Shown in pieces: positions 2,183 through 49,287 of a stretch of 64,000 nt of DNA; within the stretch, counting starts at the first letter, position 1, and the number at the start of each line of letters is the position of its first letter. A program made the translations under genes and the position numbers. The stretch is taken from positions 1,540,719-1,604,718 of the forward strand of contig CAVPTO010000003.1 of assembly GCA_963708675.1 (NCBI GenBank), written 5' to 3'. A model generated the notes under the pieces. It searched no databases. It was not told where the DNA came from and worked only from the letters and a program-made list of their open reading frames with translations. This DNA is from an uncultured Planctomycetota bacterium. GTDB taxonomy: Bacteria > Planctomycetota > Planctomycetia > Pirellulales > PNKZ01.

Positions 2183-3718
2183 TCAGCGGCTGATCGACGC
2201 GATGTGCGTCTGTTCTTGCGAGTGTTCCGAACCATCGTACGACAACACCGTTCGCACGCCGTCGAACTCGGTTTCGATATGCACCGGGCGCATCCACAAG
2301 CGATGCAAATTCGTCAACGTATCGCGAGCATAGGCAAACTGCAGCTCGGTATCGCTGTGGATGTGTTCGAGATACAGCTCGCCACGATTCTTATAGTTGG
2401 CGTCGCGAATTCGGATGATCGGCAATCCGCGATTCGTCAGGTTGAACAGCAGCCGTTGCTTGATCTTGGGGAACTCGCGACTCTCAATCTCGTATTGATC
2501 GGCGCCTGGGTTGTAGCCGAACGAAAACAGCTTGTGCCGTCGGCAGAAGTCGAGCGTCAGGAACTCATCGATGAACGTCAGATCGTTGTGAATCTTGCGT
2601 ACTTCGAAGATTTTTTGACGGCCGAGATTCGCGTTCGTGTTCCAATCGCGCTTCGCCACGAGATCGTCGCAGTCCTCGTAGTCTTTGCCAAATTGGCCGC
2701 GATTCCATCGTTCCTCGACATCGCGGAACAATTCGATGCCGAGTTTGTAGGGGTTCAAGCGATTTTGGCTCGTCGCCATCGTGCCCGAGTGGTGGTCGGC
2801 ATAGTTGACGATGTCGGCCGACGTGAGCCCCTGGCGCGTCATGATCGTCGAGTGCCAATAGCTGGCCCAGCCTTCGTTCATGATCTTTGTTTGACCCTGT
2901 GGCGCGAAGTAATACGCTTCGTCGCGCAGGATCGACAAAACATCCAACTGCCACGGCTTGAGCGGCGCGTGCTCGAGAATGAACAACATCACATCGCGCT
3001 GCGGATGCTCGGGGAACGTCGGCGTCGACTCATCCTGCTTGCGGCGACGCTCGGCCTCGGCGGCCATGGCTGCGGGAGGATTGATGTAATGATCCATGTA
3101 GCTCTTGGCGTCGAAGCGAGCCGGGCCATGATCCGTTTCACCCATTTCTTCGTCAGCCAATGCTCGCTTGCGTTCGGTCTGCGCACTCGGCCGTTTGATA
3201 AACGGTGAATGGATGTCGATCAGATCTTCGATGCTGAGACACGCATCGATGAATGTTTCTACTTCGTCAACTCCAAAGCGATCCATGTAACGACGGATGC
3301 GATTGCCATTGTTGGCCATCTGATCCATCATCTTGCGATTCGTTTGGCTGAACCAGAAGTTGTTTTTGAAGAAGTCGCAGTGGCCATAGACGTGCGCCAT
3401 GACCATCTTTTGGTCGGTGAGCGCGTTGCAACTCATCAAGTAGGCGTAGCACGGATCGTTATTGATCACGAGCTCGTAGATCTTCTGCAGTCCGTAGGCG
3501 TAGCCCTTCGAAAGCTGTTCGTACTCCATGCCGAAGCGCCAGTGCGGATAGCGCGTCGGGAAGCCGCCGAAGGCCGCGACGGCGTTCAACTGGTCGTAGT
3601 CGACGACTTCGAAGACGGTCGGAAAGAAGTCGAGTCCGTAGCCGGCCGCGTACTCTTGCATCCGGCCTTGGACATCCGACAACTCGGTCGGCAACGCTTT
3701 TGGGCTATGGATCGTCAT
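2183..3718 (-). CDS. spoVR: SpoVR/YcgB family protein
   Basis: 511 aa. ...GLDFFPTVFEVVDYDQLNAVAAFGGFPTRYPHWRFGMEYEQLSKGYAYGLQKIYELVINNDPCYAYLM is the SpoVR family signature. It is third in the conserved prkA-yeaH-spoVR order. Confidence 0.9.
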   Translation of the reverse strand: MTIHSPKALPTELSDVQGRMQEYAAGYGLDFFPTVFEVVDYDQLNAVAAFGGFPTRYPHWRFGMEYEQLSKGYAYGLQKIYELVINNDPCYAYLMSCNALTDQKMVMAHVYGHCDFFKNNFWFSQTNRKMMDQMANNGNRIRRYMDRFGVDEVETFIDACLSIEDLIDIHSPFIKRPSAQTERKRALADEEMGETDHGPARFDAKSYMDHYINPPAAMAAEAERRRKQDESTPTFPEHPQRDVMLFILEHAPLKPWQLDVLSILRDEAYYFAPQGQTKIMNEGWASYWHSTIMTRQGLTSADIVNYADHHSGTMATSQNRLNPYKLGIELFRDVEERWNRGQFGKDYEDCDDLVAKRDWNTNANLGRQKIFEVRKIHNDLTFIDEFLTLDFCRRHKLFSFGYNPGADQYEIESREFPKIKQRLLFNLTNRGLPIIRIRDANYKNRGELYLEHIHSDTELQFAYARDTLTNLHRLWMRPVHIETEFDGVRTVLSYDGSEHSQEQTHIASISR

Positions 3719-3753: not shown

Positions 3754-4861
3754 TTACTTTCCCTTTCCTAGAAACAACTTGATCGACTCGTAGATTCCAT
3801 TGCGGTCGCGAATTTCGGAGAGGACCAGCTTCTCGGACTCCGAAGACATTCGCTCACGCAAGGCGCAGATACTCGCCGCTTCCGTAAGGGCTTTCGACTT
3901 GCCCGTAGCAGAAGAGGTTCACGTTCGGAAGGATTTCATCCTTCAACATCGCGAGACTCGCCTGGTTGTCTTCGCCCCAGTTGTCGCCGTCAGAGAATTG
4001 GAAACAGTACACATTCCAATCGCTGACGGGGTACTCGTCTTTCATGACTTCGATGCAGGCCTTATAGGCCGAGCTGATGCGCGTGCCACCGCTCTCGCGG
4101 GTGTGATAGAACGTCTGCTCGTCGACCACCTTGGCGGCCGCGTCGTGAATGATGTATTTCACCGCAACGCCGCCGTATTGGCTCTTGAGCCAGGTGTCGA
4201 TCCAGAACGCCTCGGTGCGGACGATCTGTTTCTGCTCGTCGGTCATCGAGCCAGAAACATCCATCATGTAGATGATGGCTGCGTTGGCCTCGGGATGGCT
4301 GACCGTCGTCCACGACCGGTAGCGTTTGTCCTCGCGAATCGGGACGATCTTAGGCTGTTCGCTGTTGTAGGTCTTCGACGAGATCTGACGTCGCAACGCT
4401 TCCATGTAGGTGCGGCGAAAGTGTCGTAGCGACTCGGGGCCGCTGCGGCGAATGCTCGTGTACTTGGCTTTTTCCTGCACGATGTTCGCGGTGCCGCGCG
4501 GTTCAATCCGCGGAAGCTGTAACTCGTCGGCCATGATGCCGGCCAGTTCTTCGAGCGAGACTTCGACTTCGAGAACGTGAGCGCCGGGATCGCTGCCGGC
4601 CTGCCCTCCGCCGCCGCCTTTGTCGCCACCGGCTCCCACGGGCGTGCCTTCGTCGCCGTCGCCTTGGCCGACGCCTCCGCCACCGTTTTTGCCGTAACGG
4701 AAGTGGGGCACATCGAGTTGCGGGATCGGAATGCTGACCAGGTCGTTCCCCTTGCGACCGATCATTTCGCCGTGCGTCACGTACTTGCGAAGATTCTCGC
4801 GAATTCTGCCGCGAACAATCTCCTTGAATCGCGAACGATCGCGATCGATTTTCATCACCAT
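3754..4861 (-). pseudogene. yeaH: YeaH/YhbH (DUF444) family protein with an apparent 1-nt frameshift near its 3' end (about 3862)
   Basis: ORF 3854..4861 ([28 protein letters not shown]...DVSGSM...[10 protein letters not shown]) stops at ...GEYLRLA*. The +1 frame continues [35 protein letters not shown] to 3754, which resembles the family C-terminus (E. coli ...HIRDQDDIYPVFRELF). Confidence 0.85.
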
Positions 4862-4919
4862 GGCGGTCCCTCAGCTCCCGCAGAACTCACGTAACGCGAT
4901 GCTCAGCAGCCTTTGTCGC

Positions 4920-6971
<2,052 letters not shown>

Positions 6972-26360: not shown

Positions 26361-26421
26361 GGTCGCAGACGTCGGATAGGCTAGCCAGGCCGCACGAGCC
26401 ATCGCTAGAATGCCCGTCGGA

Positions 26422-32312: not shown

Positions 32313-33056
32313 GTGGCTCGTATTCTTTGTGTCGCCAATCAGAAAGGCGGCGTCGGAAAGACAACGACGGCCGTCAACCTCGCCACCGCCTTGGCTAAGA
32401 GCGGTAATCGCACGTTGCTGGTCGATCTCGACCCGCAATGCAATGCGACCAGCGGCCTCGGCCAATCTCCGGCCGCCCGGCATCCGCTCGTTTCACGTGA
32501 ACCGCTCCGCGAAGCGCTGAAGCCCACGGCGATCCCAGGTCTCGAGGTGCTTCCCGGCTGCCGCCGGTTTGCCGATGTCGAAACCCTCGCGACTTCGTCC
32601 GAACCCGAGGCGACGCTCCGCCAACACATGGAAAGCGGCCTGGCCGACTACGACTTCGTGCTCATCGACTGCCCGCCGTCGCTCGGGCAACTGACTCGCA
32701 CGGCCCTGGCGAGTTCGACCGAGGTGCTGATGCCGATCCAGTGCGAGTATTTCGCCATGGAAGGCCTCGCGCAAATGATCGAGGTCATTCGCCAGGTGAT
32801 GAGCGCTCCGCCGGCGCGGCTGAAGTTCGGCGGCATCGTGCTCACGATGTACGACGAGACGTTGGAGCTCACGCACGAAGTCGATCACGAAGTGCGCGAG
32901 TTCTTCGGTGACGTCGTTTTCAACACGGCAATCCCGCGCGATGTCGCCGTGGCCGAGGCTCCGAGCCATGGAATGAGCGTCTTAGATTTTGCTCCCCGTT
33001 CGCGCGGCACTCGCGCGTATGTTGAACTGTGCATGGAGGTCCTCGAACGTGACTAA
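32313..33056 (+). CDS. parA: chromosome partitioning ATPase ParA/Soj
   Basis: ARILCVANQKGGVGKTTTAVNLATALA... (deviant Walker A KGGxxK[ST]), LLVDLDPQCNATSGLG. Confidence 0.95.
   Translation: MARILCVANQKGGVGKTTTAVNLATALAKSGNRTLLVDLDPQCNATSGLGQSPAARHPLVSREPLREALKPTAIPGLEVLPGCRRFADVETLATSSEPEATLRQHMESGLADYDFVLIDCPPSLGQLTRTALASSTEVLMPIQCEYFAMEGLAQMIEVIRQVMSAPPARLKFGGIVLTMYDETLELTHEVDHEVREFFGDVVFNTAIPRDVAVAEAPSHGMSVLDFAPRSRGTRAYVELCMEVLERD
32489..32504. promoter_or_regulatory. degenerate parS-like site inside parA
   Basis: CGTTTCACGTGAACCG matches at 13/16, with the core GTTTCACGTGAAC palindrome retained. Confidence 0.45.
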
Positions 33057-42588: not shown

Positions 42589-42665
42589 TCGGGGTGCGGA
42601 TAGTTCCTGCGCTCAGAAGTCAATGGATGAAGAGGCCGTTGCACAAGGCGATCGCGCTCGTCGAT

Positions 42666-42770
42666 CCGCAGGATCTTGACTGTTTTGGCTCGTTCGCTTC
42701 GATCACGGTAGAATGGCCATTAACTTTGCTAACGGTGAGCGGGTATCTGAGCTTCTTTTTTTCATTAGGT
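42666..42770 (+). repeat. array repeat copy 1 (attC-like / promoter-leader repeat)
   Basis: CCGCAGGATCTTGACTGTTTTGGCTCGTTCGCTTCGATCACGGTAGAATGG...GAGCGGGTATCTGAGC...ATTAGGT aligns with copies 2-6. Confidence 0.8.
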
Positions 42771-42793
42771 CCAACTCCGCGAAGTGTGTCCGC

Positions 42794-43036
42794 ATGTCGG
42801 AGCGTATCGAACCCCATAGAGCCGCTTCTTGGCCCTCGCAATTCAGTGTAAGGGCGCTGCTCCTGTTTGTTGGAGTCGTTTGTGTCTTGGCCGCAAGCTT
42901 AACTTGGGCTAAACGCCTCCTTGATGAATTGGATGAATTGGGCGAGGCAATGGTCCTTGGTGCGACAGGCCCCGTGGAGACAGAAAGCGCTTACCAGATG
43001 CGCTCAAGCCACTTATTCGCGGCGAGATCGGTCTAA
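42794..43036 (+). CDS. cassette ORF: N-terminally anchored small protein (possibly the 5' part of one gene continuing in 43054..43371)
   Basis: MSERIEPHRAASWPSQFSVRALLLFVGVVCVLAASL.... The adjacent frame is open from 42937 and reads ...ALKPLIRGEIGLKLDGKTLSVQC..., so a frameshift near 42990-43000 is possible. Confidence 0.45.
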   Translation: MSERIEPHRAASWPSQFSVRALLLFVGVVCVLAASLTWAKRLLDELDELGEAMVLGATGPVETESAYQMRSSHLFAARSV

Positions 43037-43053: not shown

Positions 43054-43371
43054 TTGTCCGTTCAATGTTTGCAATCCGGATGGGATGCGGAATACGTTTG
43101 TAAATTTGCAGCCAATGAACAACTGCGCAACAAGATCATCACACAATTTGGGTTATCGCCCGTAACAATTCCTCCCCAATGGAGTCTATTCGTCCGTCAC
43201 TTCCCCCTCACGAGATCGCAGACACCGCCTTGGCAGATTCCGAAAGCGACCCAGTGCGACGCTTACTGTGCATCCGATGGTTTCATGAATCACGAACCGA
43301 ACGATCGATTTGAGATGCTGTATAAAGCTGATACTGGCGTTATCTATCTGCACCATTATTACGATTTCTGA
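43054..43371 (+). CDS. cassette ORF (hypothetical; possibly the 3' part of the preceding gene)
   Basis: ...LSVQCLQSGWDAEYVCKFAANEQLRNKIITQFGLSPVTIP...VIYLHHYYDF. No family recognised. Confidence 0.4.
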   Translation: MSVQCLQSGWDAEYVCKFAANEQLRNKIITQFGLSPVTIPPQWSLFVRHFPLTRSQTPPWQIPKATQCDAYCASDGFMNHEPNDRFEMLYKADTGVIYLHHYYDF

Positions 43372-43416: not shown

Positions 43417-44070
43417 TTGAGTTGCACTTGTTCGCGCAATTGGCATATTCGCTTGGGCCTTTACGAATACTTGGTGCGATTGGATGCTCGACGAGCGATT
43501 ATAGTAGGCAATGGTTTTTTCGGCCTTCTTTGGCTGTTGATAACCGGCTACGGATTGGCCTCCTTCTTTTCGCGTGATGTCCATGGCCTTGGAAAGATCG
43601 TCTGGATCGCGGGGAGTTTTTGGCTGGGAATCCTTCTCTCTATTGCACTACTGGTTGTCGCTCATCGACGAAGCGTGGCATGGCACATTGGGGCATGCAT
43701 TCCGGCAATCGTTTCCGTCTGCGTTCTCGCCCTCGCGTTTGCGGTAAATCCTCCGGTGCAAGAAGCCGCCCAGGTCGCCTTCAACAGCGCCGAGTGGAAG
43801 GGCAAGAAAGAAACCCGAAACGCAATGGTAAGCGACCTCATTGCACACCACCTTTCTACGGCAATGACTTCCGCCGACGTAGAGACCCTACTTGGTAGGC
43901 CGACCGAGTCCTATCGCTCCGAAGAACTGTTAAATCCATACCCGCGAGAATCGACGTTCTTTTTATTCTACGAGATGAAGCCGTGCGAAGGATGTCTTGA
44001 TTACAGCAGAATCGTAGTGTCGTTCGGCCCAGACGGCCGGTACCGCTTCGCAGAAGTACAAAACAAGTAG
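43417..44070 (+). CDS. cassette ORF: multi-TM membrane protein with a soluble C-terminal domain (start uncertain)
   Basis: Four hydrophobic segments (FFGLLWLLITGYGLASFF, IVWIAGSFWLGILLSIALLVV, IGACIPAIVSVCVLALAFAV). No ATG near the 5' end, so an alternative start is likely. Confidence 0.5.
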   Translation: MSCTCSRNWHIRLGLYEYLVRLDARRAIIVGNGFFGLLWLLITGYGLASFFSRDVHGLGKIVWIAGSFWLGILLSIALLVVAHRRSVAWHIGACIPAIVSVCVLALAFAVNPPVQEAAQVAFNSAEWKGKKETRNAMVSDLIAHHLSTAMTSADVETLLGRPTESYRSEELLNPYPRESTFFLFYEMKPCEGCLDYSRIVVSFGPDGRYRFAEVQNK

Positions 44071-44189
44071 CCCTTAAGGTTAGGACGTACGGGAGGGTAG
44101 AGGGTACAAGGGGACAGTCTACGTTATTGGGAATAAGTAGAATGTCCCTATTCTGTCCTCCTATTCTGTCCTCAATCGCTGCCGTGGAA

Positions 44190-44289
44190 CCGCAGCTACT
44201 TGGCGCGTTTTGATCGTTGACTTCGGCAGCGTTACAATCAGCCTTAACCCTGCTGATGTCGAGCGGGCAACTAATTTTCCTCGTAAGGC
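44190..44289 (+). repeat. array repeat copy 2
   Basis: CCGCAGCTACTTGGCGCGTTTTGATCGTTGACTTCGGCAGCGTTACAATCAGCCTTAACCCTGCTGATGTCGAGCGGGCAACTAA...GTAAGGC. Confidence 0.8.
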
Positions 44290-44299
44290 GAATGAAGTC

Positions 44300-44617
44300 G
44301 TGACGGACGAAACCGCGGGCCGGTGCGTTGTTTGTGGTGCACCGGGAAAGGTTCATTGCACGTCGGCAGACGCAAGAAGTTGTGCGTCATCGAGTCAATC
44401 GTTCTGCCTCGAACACTTCCCTGTCGAAATGCGCGACAAGCTGCCATTTGGGCCGCACAAGACTGCCGCTGAGGAGGTAGCGCTGCTTCGTAACAAACTC
44501 GCCGCGCTCGATTCACGAGCTATCGACGCTACCCTGCGAGACGAAATTCGCACTGAGTTGGAGCAAATCATCGCCGACATTGAGGCCGGTAGACGACGCC
44601 TAAGCGATCTCGCCTAA
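44300..44617 (+). CDS. cassette ORF: small Cys-containing (zinc-finger-like) protein with a coiled-coil tail
   Basis: From GTG 44300: TDETAGRCVVCGAPGKVHCTS...CLEHFP...EEVALLRNKLAALD.... Its stop codon TAA lies inside GCCTAAC (the R''-like box of copy 3). Confidence 0.5.
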   Translation: MTDETAGRCVVCGAPGKVHCTSADARSCASSSQSFCLEHFPVEMRDKLPFGPHKTAAEEVALLRNKLAALDSRAIDATLRDEIRTELEQIIADIEAGRRRLSDLA

Positions 44618-44735
44618 CAAGACGCAGCGGTTAACCCGCAACTTCTTGGCGCGTTTGGCTCGTTCGCTTCGGCTGCGGTACAATCAGCTTCAACCCTGCT
44701 CAACGTGGGCGGGCAACTGAGCCTTTTCGGTAGGC
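44612..44735 (+). repeat. array repeat copy 3 (best attC-like: GCCTAAC ... GGTAGGC, 124 bp)
   Basis: Outer complementary boxes are GCCTAAC and GGTAGGC. Inner stem is GGTTaACCCGC / GCGGGCAAC. The core is identical to the other copies, including TTGGCT-N18-TACAAT. Confidence 0.85.
44655..44684 (+). promoter_or_regulatory. sigma-70-like -35/-10 motif inside the array repeat (example from copy 3)
   Basis: TTGGCT, 18 nt, TACAAT. The motif is conserved in position in copies 3-5 (TTGGCT or TTGGTT). Copies 1 and 6 carry TAGAAT as the -10. Copy 2 has a degenerate -35 (TTGATC). Confidence 0.4.
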
Positions 44736-44737
44736 CG

Positions 44738-45277
44738 ATGATGCCGAGGCCAAGATTCACGCTCTCACAGTTTCTTTTAATCGCGACATGGTGCGCTATC
44801 TCGGCCATGATCACTGTCCGGTATTTTGCAGCGAGACCGTACGCCGGAGAATTCCCGGACATTCAAGAAGCGACGTATCCCAGTTCCGGACTCGATCGAG
44901 ACTGGTCGACAACAATTACTCCCGATGTCATTGCACGCTTACCAACTTGGCATCCAGCAGATCAGAATCCACCGGTTAGTGCATATTCCGCCCTTTCGAT
45001 TGCGAATCGCTACCGACGCGACCATCTTCGTGATCGAAACGATTGGAAATGGATTCTTGAATCGATCGCGCTCATTCCAATTGACGGCAAAAACAACAAG
45101 TGGTGCTGGTCGGTCAGTTTTGCAGCGTACCCTGAAAGTGGAGGATCAAGTGGCTGTCCCACGCTCTCGGTTTTCGTGAGAATGGACGGAACAGTCATCG
45201 AGCCCACTTCTGAAGCGCAGCATGCTAGGGTCGACATGGGGATTCTTGAGACACACGTCATCGGGCACAGGAACTAA
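44738..45277 (+). CDS. cassette ORF: N-terminally anchored hypothetical protein
   Basis: MMPRPRFTLSQFLLIATWCAISAMITV... is an anchor. The ATG lies 2 nt after the GGTAGGC box. Confidence 0.55.
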   Translation: MMPRPRFTLSQFLLIATWCAISAMITVRYFAARPYAGEFPDIQEATYPSSGLDRDWSTTITPDVIARLPTWHPADQNPPVSAYSALSIANRYRRDHLRDRNDWKWILESIALIPIDGKNNKWCWSVSFAAYPESGGSSGCPTLSVFVRMDGTVIEPTSEAQHARVDMGILETHVIGHRN

Positions 45278-45282
45278 CGCCG

Positions 45283-45404
45283 TCCTAACCGTTCGCTCCA
45301 GTTGACCGCAGGTTCTTGGCGCGTTTGGCTCGTTCCCTTCAGTCACGGTACAATCGGCTTCAACCCTGCTGACGGTCAGCGGCAACTGAGTCTTTTTGTT
45401 AGGT
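45283..45404 (+). repeat. array repeat copy 4 (TCCTAAC ... GTTAGGT, 122 bp)
   Basis: Outer CCTAAC/GTTAGG are complementary. Inner stem is CAGTTGaCCGC / GCGGCAACTG. Confidence 0.85.
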
Positions 45405-45406
45405 CT

Positions 45407-45874
45407 ATGTGGTGTCGTATCAAACGACTTGCCTTTCCCGCTCTTTGCTGGATTGTCACGTTCGTGTCTGCGATCGGCGTGTGGCTCTTCGGTGCAGCGA
45501 TTTTGAACGTTATCGCTGCAAGATCATGGCCAGCGTGTGAGTGCTTGATAAAGAACGCTGCAATCGAAACGCAGCGAGGCAATAGTCGCGTCAAGGTCGA
45601 GTACGAGTACATCGTCGGACAGACCACGTATACGTCTTCTCGCTATAAATTCCTTCACGGCTACACAAGCTGGCGAAAAGTCCTTCCGGCAGGCTTGGTT
45701 TCTGGCGCACGTGCTAAGTGCTTTGTCGACCCCGGCAATCCAAACAGTGCGGTCATCGAGCGCGGCATGACCTGGGATATGCTCTTCGGCCTTATTCCCT
45801 TGCTCCTCTTCATTATTTGTGGCCCAGCTGCGGTAGCGACCATTTTCGCGCGAAGCGACCTATCTAATCGCTGA
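45407..45874 (+). CDS. cassette ORF: DUF3592-like membrane protein
   Basis: MWCRIKRLAFPALCWIVTFVSAIGVWLFGAAIL...GNSRVKVEYEYIVGQTTYTSSRY... with a C-terminal TM segment. This architecture is typical of DUF3592. Confidence 0.6.
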   Translation: MWCRIKRLAFPALCWIVTFVSAIGVWLFGAAILNVIAARSWPACECLIKNAAIETQRGNSRVKVEYEYIVGQTTYTSSRYKFLHGYTSWRKVLPAGLVSGARAKCFVDPGNPNSAVIERGMTWDMLFGLIPLLLFIICGPAAVATIFARSDLSNR

Positions 45875-45981
45875 AAGTTGCTCCGCAGGTTCTCGGGCAT
45901 TTGGTTCGTTCGCTTCGGTCACGCTACAATCAGCTTCAACCCTGCTGGCGTGCAGCGAGCAACTGGGCCTTTTCGTTAGGC
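45862..45981 (+). repeat. array repeat copy 5 (ATCTAAT ... GTTAGGC, 120 bp)
   Basis: Inner stem is AGTTGCTCcGC / GCGAGCAACT, which covaries relative to copies 3 and 4. Confidence 0.85.
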
Positions 45982-45983
45982 AT

Positions 45984-46472
45984 ATGAACGAGCTTATCGC
46001 GCTGATCGATGATGCGTTTGATAAGCGACCTCGCCCAGACGATTGGGATATCACGCACTGCACCTACGACAAGAAATACGGAGGTTCCTTTAACGGGCCT
46101 TGCGGCGAGTGCGCCAGGATGTCCGCTTTTTTCAAAGGGAAATCCTGGCGACATCTTACGGGCAAAGAGTTGCATCGCGAGGGTCAGTCGGCCGGTCTCT
46201 TTACAGTTCCGGCATACTGCTATTTTCTTCCTGCATTTTTAATCGCGGCAATACGGGAACGCGAAGACGCCGACGTTTGCGTTGACCATCTCGCGTATAC
46301 TTTTGGTCCTAAAAGCGACAACAAATGGGCTACGGACCGGGCAGCACACATCTTCGCGCAACTGAGTGTCGAAGAGCGAGAGGCAACTTTAGCGTACTTT
46401 CGCTTGGCTCTATCTGGTGACGGAGACTTTGACGGTTATTGTGAGCGCGCTATCCGCACGCTTAGCGCGTAA
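45984..46472 (+). CDS. cassette ORF: hypothetical cytoplasmic protein
   Basis: MNELIALIDDAFDKRPRPDDWDITHCTYDKKYGG.... The ATG lies 2 nt after GTTAGGC. No family recognised. Confidence 0.55.
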   Translation: MNELIALIDDAFDKRPRPDDWDITHCTYDKKYGGSFNGPCGECARMSAFFKGKSWRHLTGKELHREGQSAGLFTVPAYCYFLPAFLIAAIREREDADVCVDHLAYTFGPKSDNKWATDRAAHIFAQLSVEEREATLAYFRLALSGDGDFDGYCERAIRTLSA

Positions 46473-46526
46473 CCGTTCTCTGGCTCTCAAGAACAAAGGC
46501 GGTTCGTGATTCGCTGTCGACAACAC

Positions 46527-46850
46527 TGGAATGCCCCGGATTTCTGTACCAGGGATTATGAGAGTATGGGTTGGGTAAACGAAACGGCAGTGTGCTGCTG
46601 GAGTGAGGGCTGAGGCGCAGCCGAAGCCCGAACGGAAGCAGCACACTGCCGTGCGAACTCCGCCGGGGTCTGGTAGCCAAGACTGCTGTGCGGTCGCTCC
46701 TGGTTGTGCTCGTGCAGCCGTCGCTGGGCGAACCAACGAGCCTCGGCCAGGTTCATGAACTCTTCCACGTTCAACAACTCGTCTCGCAGCCGACTGAAGA
46801 ACGATTCGGCATAGCCGTTCTGCCACGGCGCACCAGGCTCGATGTACAAC
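46527..46850 (-). repeat. extra copy of the IS left end (IR plus the 3' part of orfB)
   Basis: ORFs 46556..46849 and 46880..47263 share the identical C-terminal tract YIEPGAPWQNGYAESFFSRLRDELLNVEEF... Confidence 0.8.
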
Positions 46851-46879
46851 TGGAATGCCCCGGATTTCTGTACCAGGGA

Positions 46880-47801
46880 TTATGAGAGTATGGGTTGGGT
46901 AAACGAAACGGCAGTGTGCTGCTGGAGTGAGGGCTGAGGCGCAGCCGAAGCCCGAACGGAAGCAGCACACTGCCGTGCGAACTCCGCCGGGGTCTGGTAG
47001 CCAAGACTGCTGTGCGGTCGCTCCTGGTTGTGCTCGTGCAGCCGTCGCTGGGCGAACCAACGAGCCTCGGCCAGGTTCATGAACTCTTCCACGTTCAACA
47101 ACTCGTCTCGCAGCCGACTGAAGAACGATTCGGCATAGCCGTTCTGCCACGGCGCACCAGGCTCGATGTACAACAGCTCCAGGCCCGCGCCGGGCATGTC
47201 CACGGATCGCCGTCGCGATGAACTCCGGGCCGTTGTCGCTGCGAACATGCTCGGGAACGCCACGTGTCAGGAACAGGTGCGTCAGAACGTCGAGCACCCG
47301 CTCGGCCGGCAGGCTCCGATCGACCTCCAACGCCAGGCATTCACGCGTGTATTCATCGGTGATCGCGAACCACTTCAGCGGTCGACCCGACGCCGTACGA
47401 TCGTGAATGAAGTCCCAAGTCCAAACGTGATCCTTCCGCTCTGCACGACGCCGCACACAGCTGTTGGCACTGTGCCCCAAACGACGGCGTTTCACGGTTC
47501 TTTTCGGCACTTTCAAGCCCTCACGCTGCCACAGACGGTACACCCGCTTGAAGTTCACACGCCACCCCGCTTGTCGCAACTTCGCCGTCATCATCCGATA
47601 GCCGTAACGCGGATACCGCGCCGCCAACGCGTGCAGATCCTTCACCAGCCGCTGCTCTTCGAGCGAGTCTTCGTTCGCTCGATATCGTTGCGTGCTACGC
47701 GGCTGACCCAACGCCTGACATGCCCGACGCTCACTCACGCACTGCCGCTGCCGAACGTAGTCGACCGCAGCGCATCGTCGCGCCGGGCTCAGTAGTTTCC
47801 C
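46880..47801 (-). pseudogene. IS3-family transposase OrfB (DDE integrase core) with an extra frameshift at about 47200-47212
   Basis: ...SPARRCAAVDYVRQRQCVSERRACQALGQPRSTQRY...WTWDFIHDRT...VRSDNGPEFIATAIR, then a frame change, then VDMPGAGLELLYIEPGAPWQNGYAESF...RPHSSLGYQTP. Confidence 0.75.
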
Positions 47802-48067
47802 TCAAGCGCCTCTTTCAAGATCGCCTTGTCCAGTTCCGCCTCGGCCAGCAGCTTCTTCAAACGCTTGTTCTCACCCTCCAACTCTTTCAGTCGCTTCGCC
47901 TCTTCCGACTTCATTCCGCCATATTGATTCCGCCAGCGATGCAGTGTCTGCTCGCTGATCTCCAACGACTGCACCACCTGGCCAATCGTCTTGCCCGCCG
48001 CCAGCATCGTCTCCGCCTCGCGAAGCTTCTTGATGATCTGCTCCGCCGAATGCTTCTTGCCTTTCAT
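47789..48067 (-). CDS. IS3-family transposase OrfA (HTH)
   Basis: MKGKKHSAEQIIKKLREAETMLAAGKTIGQVVQSLEISEQTLHRWRNQYGGMKSEEAKRLKELEGENKRLKKLLAE is the IS3/IS911 OrfA pattern with a leucine zipper. Confidence 0.9.
   Translation of the reverse strand: MKGKKHSAEQIIKKLREAETMLAAGKTIGQVVQSLEISEQTLHRWRNQYGGMKSEEAKRLKELEGENKRLKKLLAEAELDKAILKEALEGNY
47795..47801 (-). promoter_or_regulatory. programmed -1 ribosomal frameshift heptamer G_GGA_AAC at the orfA/orfB overlap
   Basis: The minus strand reads GAG GGA AAC TAC TGA. orfB continues in the -1 frame as GGG AAA CTA CTG AGC.... This fits the X_XXY_YYZ pattern. Confidence 0.7.
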
Positions 48068-48176
48068 CGAAAGTCCTCCTGCCCAAAATGGGCCAATGGA
48101 CTCTCATACCACCCGGATCAAGATTTGGGGAGCATTCCAACACTCGCTGCAACCGATCCCTGCCCGGCGGCCGCCG

Positions 48177-48983
48177 ATGCTTCTCGTCGTGTTTACGGTG
48201 ATGCTGACAGCATTGCCGAGTTGTGAATGCGATTCGCTAAAAACTCAAATCGCTTGGGTTCACGCTACAAAGACGCCTCGAGAGTTATCCGAACGGACGA
48301 GCGCGTTATATGAAACCGCAAGTCCAAGTCGGCTGCGAGCTCTTGAAGCGGCGAAGGAAACCGACATCGCCTTGTCGGCATCGTGGGAATCGGTGCGACG
48401 AATTTCGATCCTCGCCGGCGGCAATGAGCAGGAGGCCTTCAACGCGAAAGCGATCTCTTCCTTTCTAAGCATCGTGGAACGTCGCACCGGTACTCCCTTG
48501 CCGCTGTTCTGGCGATCCGTCTTGAAAACGGCTCGCTTCAATAATCGAAGGATGACGCATTTTGCGGAGCCGAGTGACTACGAGCTTTTCGCTGCCATTG
48601 CCGATTCCGTTCGTGACTCACCACGCCAAGAAACTTGGCGCAAAGCGTTCTCTTCAACACCGATGGGCGGAAAACTCGCCATGACGACCGCCAGTGGCGT
48701 TGTCTACATCTCGCTTTACCAAGACCGGCCGCACAAGCACCCACTTTATGCTGTTGATGAAGCAACGGGGCGACTCCTTTGGGAGTCGACGGTGTGGTCA
48801 GAGTGGGTTGGGGTTAGCCATTCGGGGCCAACATGGACATGCGAATTGCTAACCGTCCGGCCGTCAGATGAGTTGACCGTGTTCGGGATCTCGGGTTCGT
48901 TGTTCTTTGTCGAGTCGTTTGACGCCAGAACCGGGGTCAATCTGGGGCGATTCTGCACGGCCTTCGTTGAGTACAACCTCTAA
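48177..48983 (+). CDS. cassette ORF: putative lipoprotein/secreted hypothetical protein
   Basis: MLLVVFTVMLTALPSC-ECDS... is a signal plus a Cys. The part of ORF 47991..48983 that reads through the IS end is discarded. Confidence 0.55.
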   Translation: MLLVVFTVMLTALPSCECDSLKTQIAWVHATKTPRELSERTSALYETASPSRLRALEAAKETDIALSASWESVRRISILAGGNEQEAFNAKAISSFLSIVERRTGTPLPLFWRSVLKTARFNNRRMTHFAEPSDYELFAAIADSVRDSPRQETWRKAFSSTPMGGKLAMTTASGVVYISLYQDRPHKHPLYAVDEATGRLLWESTVWSEWVGVSHSGPTWTCELLTVRPSDELTVFGISGSLFFVESFDARTGVNLGRFCTAFVEYNL

Positions 48984-49039
48984 ACGTTTCCCGATTGTCT
49001 AGCGCACTGGCAATTCGGAGCGTTCATATCCTTTTGTCC

Positions 49040-49150
49040 GTCGCCGCGGTTAACCATAGGTTCTTGACGCGTTTGGCTCGCTCACTTCGGATGCGTTAGA
49101 ATGACCTCCAATCCCTAACGACGGTCAGCGGGCAACCGAGCTCAGGCGAC
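49040..49150 (+). repeat. array repeat copy 6 (outer stem GTCGCC/GGCGAC), immediately upstream of tRNA-Leu
   Basis: GGTTCTTGACGCGTTTGGCTCGCTCACTTCGGATGCGTTAGAATGACC...GGTCAGCGGGCAACCGAGC aligns with copies 1-5. The inner stem CGGTT/AACCG covaries. Confidence 0.8.
49073..49102 (+). promoter_or_regulatory. sigma-70-like promoter candidate for tRNA-Leu (inside repeat copy 6)
   Basis: TTGGCT, 18 nt, TAGAAT, about 104 nt upstream of the mature tRNA 5' end. Confidence 0.4.
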
Positions 49151-49205
49151 ATCATGCTTCGCGGACGGACTAGAATTGTCGAAAACTGTTACTGGGTAAG
49201 CACAA

Positions 49206-49287
<82 letters not shown>

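Follow-up and report, generated by a model that had tools for sequence, protein, structure and literature searches.

Conserved promoter-like cores in the attC-type repeats of a decaying planctomycete cassette array

A ~130-nt direct repeat in an uncultured Planctomycetota bacterium is well supported as an integron attC family, of which the copies found here appear to be the more decayed members. The repeat was studied in 64,000 nt of contig CAVPTO010000003.1 (GenBank assembly GCA_963708675.1, positions 1,540,719 to 1,604,718), referred to below as the window; coordinates are window positions unless another locus (L number) is named. The window holds six clear copies, c1 to c6, all on the + strand. 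We propose, with a probability of about 0.55, that they are the attCs of a cassette array whose central loop carries a conserved promoter that drives the next cassette, and that this promoter was kept as recombination decayed. An attC family with an internal promoter was one of two options raised in a preliminary description of this DNA. Its attC half is now well supported, and its promoter half is suggested by the pattern of conservation and by the resemblance to probable promoters found elsewhere in the window.

The repeat occupies the entire gap between genes, from the upstream stop codon to the next start codon, and its neighbors are unrelated small ORFs (open reading frames) on the same strand. 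A 30-nt core pattern allowing at most 3 mismatches has five matches, against 0.00 expected from shuffled sequence. A seventh copy was not found in the remaining 57 kb of the window with either a family covariance model or a profile hidden Markov model (HMM). The preliminary description was right that a repeat exists, but the range it gave, 44636-49205, omits the first two of the six copies.

Copies c3, c4, and c5 are bounded by integron core sites, R'' (RYYYAAC) on the 5' side and R' (GTTRRRY) on the 3' side, the latter 2-3 nt before the ATG. Copy c3 (44609..44741; 131 bits with the family model R1) opens with R'' GCCTAAC (44612-44618), which holds the TAA stop of the upstream ORF. After 5-9 unpaired nt comes GCAGCGGTTAACCCGC, with L'' at 44624-44639. 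Its 3' end consists of L' GCGGGCAACTGAGC (44709-44722), a T-rich spacer, R' GGTAGGC (44729-44735), 2 nt, and the ATG at 44738. Copy c4 (45280..45410), a match of the family covariance model, has R'' TCCTAAC (45283-45289), L'' GCTCCAGTTGACCGC (45295-45309), L' GCGGCAACTGAGT (45379-45391), and R' GTTAGGT (45398-45404) before an ATG at 45407. Copy c5 (45855..45987; R1 114 bits) has R'' ACCTATC (45858-45864), L'' around AGTTGCTCCGC, L' GCGAGCAACTGGGC (45955-45968), and R' GTTAGGC (45975-45981), with its ATG at 45984.

Core sites are incomplete in the other three copies, so that the R boxes are decayed in half of the window copies. Copy c1 (42639..42771; R1 96 bits) lacks R'' and retains L'' (42654-42669), L' GCGGGTATCTGAGC (42739-42752), and an R'-like ATTAGGT (42765-42771). 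Copy c2 (44163..44295; R1 104 bits) also lacks R'' and retains L' (44263-44276) and an R'-like GTAAGGC (44283-44289). A 13-nt tandem duplication (CCTATTCTGTCCT twice, 44146-44171) abuts the 5' end of c2, at the expected position of R''. In c6 (49028..49157; R1 94.5 bits), neither R box is recognizable. With L'' CGGTTAACC and L' GCGGGCAACCGAGC (49128-49141), c6 keeps the L''-loop-L' body and is most readily taken as the final attC of the array.

Better-preserved relatives display complete attC architecture. When one genome per species was scanned, the core turned up in four metagenome-assembled genomes of Planctomycetaceae and, as a chance match, in one Bacillus genome. A pattern scan of metagenomes gave 56 matches, of which two are family members (L014 and L042) and the rest unrelated coding sequences. 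The family covariance model added a distant copy in Lignipirellula cremea (L006). The cores of L014 are perfect (GCCTAAC/GTTAGGC), and L002, L003, and L005 also have GCCTAAC; the arms of these relatives read GCCTAAC ... CAGTTGACCC ... plus a matching 3' arm. In the best-preserved relative, L014, the minimum free energy (MFE) fold (dG -28 to -31 kcal/mol, z about -3) is that of a textbook attC: an R box of 8 bp, GGCCTAAC/GTTAGGCC, is separated by 5/6 unpaired nt from an L box in which two bases bulge out of the R''/L'' arm.

The two arms of the repeat are complementary in many copies. In the MFE fold of c4, CCTAAC pairs with GTTAGG and CAGTTG.CCGC pairs with GCGGCAACTG. Arm-to-arm duplexes of c4, L005, L014, and L042 have z-scores of -4 to -7, with 0 of 300 shuffles as good. 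The duplex is moderate in c3, c5, and L002 and weak in c1, c2, c6, L001, and L003; among the window copies, z is -4.7 for c4, -2.3 for c5, -1.7 for c1, and -0.4 for c2. Across a 12-copy alignment, 74.5% of the proposed R/L pairs are formed, versus 30-44% when the partner is slid. The sites also have the context expected of an array, being co-oriented and each following a short ORF. A home-made attC finder (AAC...GTT plus arm duplex energy) was dropped as noisy, with 46 matches in the window versus 7-20 in shuffles.

An independent covariance model, R2, recovers family members. R2 served as a surrogate for the IntegronFinder model and was built solely from 10 classical planctomycete attCs, none from the repeat family. 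It detects L005 (E 2.5e-5), L014 (E 4.9e-5), and L042 (E 1.7e-3), with L003 borderline (E 0.06). With filters off, c3 (14.6 bits, E 0.029) ranks first and c4 (12.2 bits, E 0.1) second in the 10-kb region, and both align over their full length. The detection of relatives together with the top ranks of c3 and c4 suggests that the repeat family is an attC family.

Relatives of the repeat occur beside remnants of integron integrase genes. In L002, a family copy starts 14 nt past a truncated integron-integrase gene (4772-5152) encoding a product that matches the C-terminus of IntI1 at 72% identity. Similar fragments head small same-strand ORF arrays in Lignipirellula cremea (L006 10001-10294), Thalassoroseus pseudoceratinae (L008 10001-10408), and a metagenome contig (L007 8356-8592 and 10001-10435). 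The best match of these fragments in NCBIfam is TIGR02249, integron integrase (E 1e-32 to 8e-52; L002 E 1e-32). All 120 best database matches to the C-terminal integrase fragment are also short (62-156 amino acids). Truncated intI remnants, co-oriented with the cassettes, seem to head many planctomycete arrays.

The family arms match those of classical attCs near the truncated integrase genes of L002, L006, L007, and L008, including the same bulged G after GCT. The shared motifs are GCCKAAC-CAnnCG-CTGCAG... in the 5' arm and ...CTGAGCT..GTC-GTTRRGG in the 3' arm. The R and L helices of the classical attCs clearly covary, with 84.9% paired and 0 of 500 shuffles reaching the observed score. One classical attC (L002 6683-6794) has arms nearly those of the repeat family and a middle that is an ordinary paired stem.

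The array resembles a cluster of attC sites lacking integron-integrase, or CALIN (Cury et al. 2016, PMC4889954). Copies c3, c4, and c5 are attC-like and lie on one strand, decayed c1, c2, and c6 surround them, and no intI was detected in the 64 kb. An intI, attI, and common promoter (Pc) adjoining the array, as in a complete integron, were not found in the window. By all appearances, the array is a decaying CALIN that has been hit by an IS3-family insertion sequence (IS). It would have been assembled in the past by IntI-mediated recombination.

The promoter-like core is the best-conserved part of the repeat. The hexamers are TTGGCT-18-TAGAAT in c1 (42685-42690 and 42709-42714) and c6 (49073-49078 and 49097-49102), and TTGGCT-18-TACAAT in c3 (44655-44660 and 44679-44684) and c4 (45325-45330 and 45349-45354). 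They are TTGGTT-18-TACAAT in c5 (45901-45906 and 45925-45930) and TTGATC-17-TACAAT in c2 (44210-44215 and 44233-44238). The hexamers thus stand in register, 17-18 nt apart, in six of six copies, and the conserved leader stretch CAACCCTGCTGACGG.CAGCGGGCAACTGAG lies downstream of them in all six. All cores are sense-oriented and lie 50-57 nt from the start codon. Five of the six copies score 9/12 under the criteria of the hexamer scan; c5 has TTGGTT.

Conservation within the repeat is inverted relative to its recombination sites. Mean pairwise identity was computed by segment over the six window copies, which were not selected by pattern. It is 0.91 for the -10 hexamer, 0.84 for the -35 hexamer, 0.73 for the spacer between them, and 0.72 for the hairpin 3' arm/L', compared with 0.53 for L'', 0.46 for R', and 0.33 for R''. 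The -10 window ranks first of 124 six-column windows, and its variation is confined to position 3 (C/G). Invariant columns make up 9 of 12 hexamer positions versus 23 of 112 elsewhere (Fisher p 2.4e-4). Thus, a central loop of ~70 nt, largely unpaired in predicted folds, is the best-conserved part of the element, and the recombination cores are the least conserved.

The spacing and sequence of the hexamers are also maintained beyond the window. There are zero indels between the hexamers of 12 aligned copies, and the distant L006 copy likewise has an 18-nt spacer. TACAAT occurs in both metagenome copies (L014 and L042), though the search pattern left the -10 free. Copies that have lost their arms (c1, c2, c6, and L001) retain the hexamers.

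The same -10 hexamer is found at other likely promoters. TA[CG]AAT is rare in the window, with 20 sites on both strands, 6 of them in the repeats. Outside the repeats, it lies 10 nt before tRNA-Gln, 29 nt before tRNA-Leu, and 18-40 nt before the ORF starts at 32313 (as TTGGTC-17-TACAAT), 35204(-), and 41581(-); the sites near tRNA or ORF starts are at 26406, 32268, 35250(-), 41605(-), and 49171. Its rarity and its position upstream of tRNAs and ORFs make TA[CG]AAT a plausible working -10 element of this organism. A search for literature on planctomycete transcription start sites returned nothing usable.

In the arrangement that we propose, each cassette consists of a small unrelated ORF and its attC. 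The 5' half of the attC comprises R'' (GCCTAAC, overlapping the stop), about 5 unpaired nt, and L'', which reads GCT[G]CAGTTG[A]CCCGC and includes two extrahelical bases. The central loop of 70 nt, called the variable terminal structure (VTS), follows, and then L' (as in c3), the T-rich spacer, and R' (GTTAGGC/T) 2-3 nt before the next ATG. The VTS would hold a sigma-70-type promoter (TTGGCT, 18 nt, TA[C/G]AAT) aimed into the next cassette. The predicted leader, ~45-50 nt long, would start near the base of the inverted repeat CCCTGCTGA/TCAGCGGG and end in R' before the ATG. Each attC would thereby drive transcription of its downstream cassette. Recombination activity would have been lost, as R boxes decayed and an IS3 element inserted, while selection retained the promoter.

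A broader form of this proposal falls a little short of even odds and is offered tentatively. Here, the loop of one planctomycete attC lineage would have become an outward promoter plus a 5' stem-loop, able to activate any downstream cassette independently of Pc. The cores would then decay after loss of the integrase, and the promoter would be kept.

Several results weigh against a promoter-bearing attC. Matches of 9/12 are common by chance (6 in 9 kb versus 3.7 +/- 2.2 in shuffles) and the 18-nt spacer is sub-optimal; given this weak match quality, the signal rests on conservation of the hexamers. Being of common descent, the six copies do not count as independent samples. The conserved block TTTGGCTCGTTCGCTTCGG extends 12 nt into the spacer, beyond what a plain promoter explains, and constraint may act on this extra block (TTTGGCTCGTTCGCTTCGG; TCGTTCGCTTCGG) besides, or instead of, the promoter. 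Whole-element single-stranded DNA folds of the window copies, on both strands, are no better than shuffles (z -1.3 to +0.8), and the predicted 5' untranslated regions form RNA folds no stabler than those of shuffled sequence (z -0.8 to +1.1). The R2 matches to c3 and c4 are marginal (E 0.03-0.1), and c5, c1, c2, and c6 are undetected by that model. In the 64-kb window, tblastn with IntI1 detected no integrase (nothing below E 2.6), while it recovers the L002 remnant at E 1e-24. Finally, a sense promoter-like site is present in only 1 of 15 other planctomycete attCs examined, plus one with TGGTAGAAT in its loop.

This last count led us to reject the idea that promoter-bearing attCs are general in planctomycetes; the promoter-like core appears instead to be a trait of one attC lineage and not of the phylum. 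Two classical attCs of L002 (7871-7980 and 6683-6794) do carry sense promoter-like motifs. One has TGGTAGAAT, which is extended -10-like, in its hairpin loop, and the other has TTGACC-16-GATAAT, in which TTGACC belongs to the L'' box CAGTTGACC.

The same attC evidence would equally fit a decaying array in which the promoter resemblance has no function. The conserved block would then have been kept by recent amplification or homogenization, or by a role at the DNA level, for example if it helps the long loop to fold or is bound by a host or integron protein. Very similar attCs are known in chromosomal integron arrays (PMC4889954). The chance frequency of 9/12 matches and the reach of the conserved block well into the spacer point the same way, as does the L006 copy, which has weaker hexamers (TTAGCT / TAGACT) yet keeps GCTCG..GCTTCG in the spacer. 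Recent amplification, however, predicts even divergence, whereas the arms stand at 0.33-0.53 identity and the hexamers at 0.84-0.91. Moreover, the -35/-10 region is mostly unpaired in predicted folds, the arm-less copies c1, c2, c6, and L001 retain hexamers and spacing although their recombination function is gone, and the same -10 hexamer recurs at likely promoters elsewhere in the window. We consider a non-functional core less likely than the proposed reading, while giving it real weight.

Much less probable is a portable element unrelated to integrons, either a promoter-plus-leader module or a repeat like miniature inverted-repeat transposable elements or repetitive extragenic palindromes, with terminal inverted repeats, that spread before small genes and tRNA-Leu. 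Copies do lie upstream of every cluster ORF and of a tRNA, their ends are inverted repeats, and the L001 copy follows a terminator-like palindrome without recognizable integron cores. Those ends, however, are RYYYAAC/GTTRRRY cores with the canonical layout of spacer, L box, and bulge, and relatives share mixed arrays with classical attCs and intI remnants. The copies all point the same way, span the stop-to-start gap entirely, and show no target-site duplications, and the rest of the window holds no further copy. The ORFs are mutually unrelated, which excludes tandem gene duplication as the source of the repeat. The other option of the preliminary description, a duplicated promoter-plus-leader module, is accordingly not supported as it was stated, given the unrelated ORFs and the extension of the repeat into complementary arms with integron cores.

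There is very little probability that the conserved part works as a structured RNA, with the hairpin CCCUGCUGA/UCAGCGGG as the functional unit of a cis-regulatory leader or of a small RNA. The inverted repeat downstream of the hexamers (c2 44248-44267; c3 CCCTGCTCA/TGGGCGGG, 44694-44713; c4 45364-45382) is paired in 84% of alignment cells versus 22-45% when slid. It includes one covarying CG<->GC pair (6 and 4 sequences, respectively), and the hairpin is present in the MFE folds of the predicted c3 and c4 leaders. Against this, the leader folds are no more stable than shuffles, as noted above, and an Rfam scan of the window returned four tRNAs only, with no other family at gathering score. The downstream genes also have no common function that would suit a riboswitch-like leader. 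The hairpin 3' arm doubles as the L' partner of L'' in the long-range attC helix; in DNA, the two helices are mutually alternative, and pairing at the DNA level can account for the hairpin.

The AGG that the preliminary description read as a ribosome-binding site in c3 to c5 does lie upstream of the ATG. It is, however, 3 nt away and forms part of the R' core GTTAGGC/T, and no other anti-Shine-Dalgarno match is present there. AGG is absent in c6 and occurs at other distances in c1 and c2.

In its recombination signals, the repeat family is similar to known chromosomal attCs. It shares the GCCTAAC ... GTTAGGC cores, the 5/6-nt spacer, and extrahelical L-box bases on the R''/L'' arm with sites such as the Vibrio VCRs (Vibrio cholerae repeats) and those of L002, L003, and L006 to L008. 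As in chromosomal integron arrays, the sites lie between a stop and the next start, are co-oriented, delimit cassettes of 450-700 bp, and are similar within the array. In the classical planctomycete attCs examined, the middle is usually a paired stem, whereas here it is a ~70-nt, largely unpaired, promoter-like VTS that is the best-conserved part of the site. Like a CALIN (PMC4889954), the array has two or more attC-type sites that lie on the same strand no more than 4 kb apart, together with cassettes of unknown function, an IS inside the array, and no integrase nearby. It may differ from other CALINs in having a promoter of its own in every attC.

Integron cassettes are held to be promoterless and dependent on a single Pc beside the integrase. 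Cassette-borne promoters have been described for cmlA, qac, qnrVC, and toxin-antitoxin cassettes and for promoter-active cassettes that are ORF-less or gene-less (PMC6557892; bioRxiv 10.1101/2023.11.21.568050; review PMC8876359). In Vibrio sp. DAT722, a sigma-70-type promoter bridges the attC junction of cassettes 20/21, with a -35 that lies inside the attC and recurs in several attCs (PMC2945992). Transcription starts have also been mapped inside an attC, that of cassette F2 (PMC8876359, PMC6557892, bioRxiv 10.1101/2023.11.21.568050, PMC2945992). The repeat family would share with these systems a Pc-independent transcription of cassettes, which is predicted here. Known cassette promoters, however, lie in the 5' untranslated region or the cassette body, or have only the -35 in the attC with a cassette-unique -10. 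In the repeat family, both hexamers and their spacing are located in the attC loop family-wide, and the promoter would accompany the upstream cassette and serve whatever lies downstream. No published description came to light of an attC family in which the loop holds a complete, conserved promoter, and literature searches for phrases describing a promoter within an attC gave nothing relevant.

Promoters can also reach attCs by insertion. Group IIC-attC introns can bring outward-oriented promoters (PMC3001079). The two cases are alike in an attC-located promoter able to drive the downstream cassette; the intron promoters, however, belong to an inserted ~1.8-kb intron, whereas the repeat is a 70-nt module in the attC hairpin with no intron or reverse transcriptase. 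The repeats can further be compared with mobile elements that supply promoters. The Correia elements of Neisseria are short repeats with inverted-repeat ends and can provide neighboring genes with -35/-10 elements; they move by transposition, which duplicates the target, and lie scattered in either orientation. Unlike them, the repeats described here bear integron core sites and occur in a single co-oriented cassette array.

The field has yet to settle how distal cassettes come to be expressed, and whether CALIN cassettes are expressed in the first place (PMC4889954; PMC8876359). If the proposed promoter is real, its location in the loop could explain how cassettes are expressed without a nearby integrase or common promoter. 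The attC would then carry regulatory information as well as recombination signals, and a promoter carried along by one cassette would serve the cassette next to it. It would also be a case of an attC co-opted from recombination site to promoter. Inverted conservation, in which the loop is kept and the cores decay, offers a way to trace the repurposing of recombination sites after loss of the recombinase.

The array ends at tRNA-Leu(UAG) (49206..49287, +), which marks its downstream end and is the next feature after c6. The preliminary description linked c6 to this tRNA. The -10 of c6 does end 103 nt before the gene and no credible ORF follows c6, but the link is positional, as the tRNA has a TAGAAT of its own 29 nt upstream (49171..49176, +). 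This hexamer is likely the -10 of tRNA-Leu's own promoter, and its geometry is comparable with that at tRNA-Gln (TAGAAT 10 nt upstream) and tRNA-Pro (TACGAT 17 nt upstream). Read-through from c6 into tRNA-Leu would be incidental.

The left flank of c6 differs between strains. A sister-strain scaffold (L066) has a near-identical c6 upstream of tRNA-Leu, with a different IS ~35 nt upstream of c6. This difference in neighbor indicates that the left flank is a rearrangement hotspot. At 83-1530, the scaffold carries a DDE_Tnp_1 (IS4-like) transposase gene where the window has the ORF at 48177-48983. A comparison of gene order through PepSY homologues led to a more distant, 53%-identical relative (L065), which shows no synteny and has neither the tRNA nor the repeat at that place.

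The cassette ORFs are small and mutually unrelated (Pfam), with cassette spacings of 446, 670, and 576 bp. All are on the + strand. ORF B (44300..44617, 105 amino acids) most likely starts at the GTG at 44300, has a weak zf-HIT-like match, and ends with its TAA stop inside the R'' of c3. ORF C (44738..45277, 179 amino acids) has an N-terminal hydrophobic segment and no Pfam family. ORF D (45407..45874, 155 amino acids) is a DUF3592 membrane protein (PF12158, E 7.9e-8), and ORF E (45984..46472, 162 amino acids) belongs to DUF6714 (PF20461, E 3.7e-7). ORF F (48177..48983, 268 amino acids) has a lipoprotein-like N-terminus and a weak PQQ_2/beta-propeller match.

Between c1 and c2 lie three further small ORFs on the + strand (42794-43036, 43054-43371, and 43417-44070), with no Pfam family above the cut-off. 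The classical-attC covariance model found no attC-like site among them. An imperfect palindrome GGGGACAGTCTAC...GTAGAATGTCCC (44110-44148) separates the stop of the third ORF from c2. In two other Planctomycetaceae contigs (L001 1601-1645 and L003 3433-3475), highly similar palindromes, GGGGACATTCT...CAGAATGTCCCC, closely precede the array or repeat. The palindrome may be a shared terminator-like element that marks the start of such arrays. In L003, the array opens after the palindrome with only the 3' half of an attC (GCAGCTGAGCTGGGTC-GTTAGGA, 3520-3545), directly before the first small ORF; this looks like a half-site boundary.

The IS3-family element occupies the junction between ORF E and ORF F (46527..48139, -). 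It is flanked by an ACAC target duplication (46523-46526 and 48140-48143) and ends in the terminal inverted repeats TGGAATGCCCC / GGGGAGCATTCCA. The preliminary description placed the insertion in the -10 of a degenerate copy of the repeat; the IS boundaries and the duplication stand, but a copy at the junction was rejected. After deletion of the IS in silico, the 87-nt junction upstream of ORF F has no family match (nhmmer --max, E<=100; only the six known copies were found). Its local alignment to the consensus scores 21, versus 18.6 +/- 3.3 for shuffles, with 122 of 500 shuffles as good. The element has orfA at 47789-48067 and an orfB in fragments split over two reading frames, and it is probably inactive. 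A stretch of 324 bp that takes in the terminal inverted repeat of the element is perfectly duplicated in direct orientation (46525-46848 = 46849-47172), as though either part of the IS had been duplicated internally or a partial copy lay against a full one.

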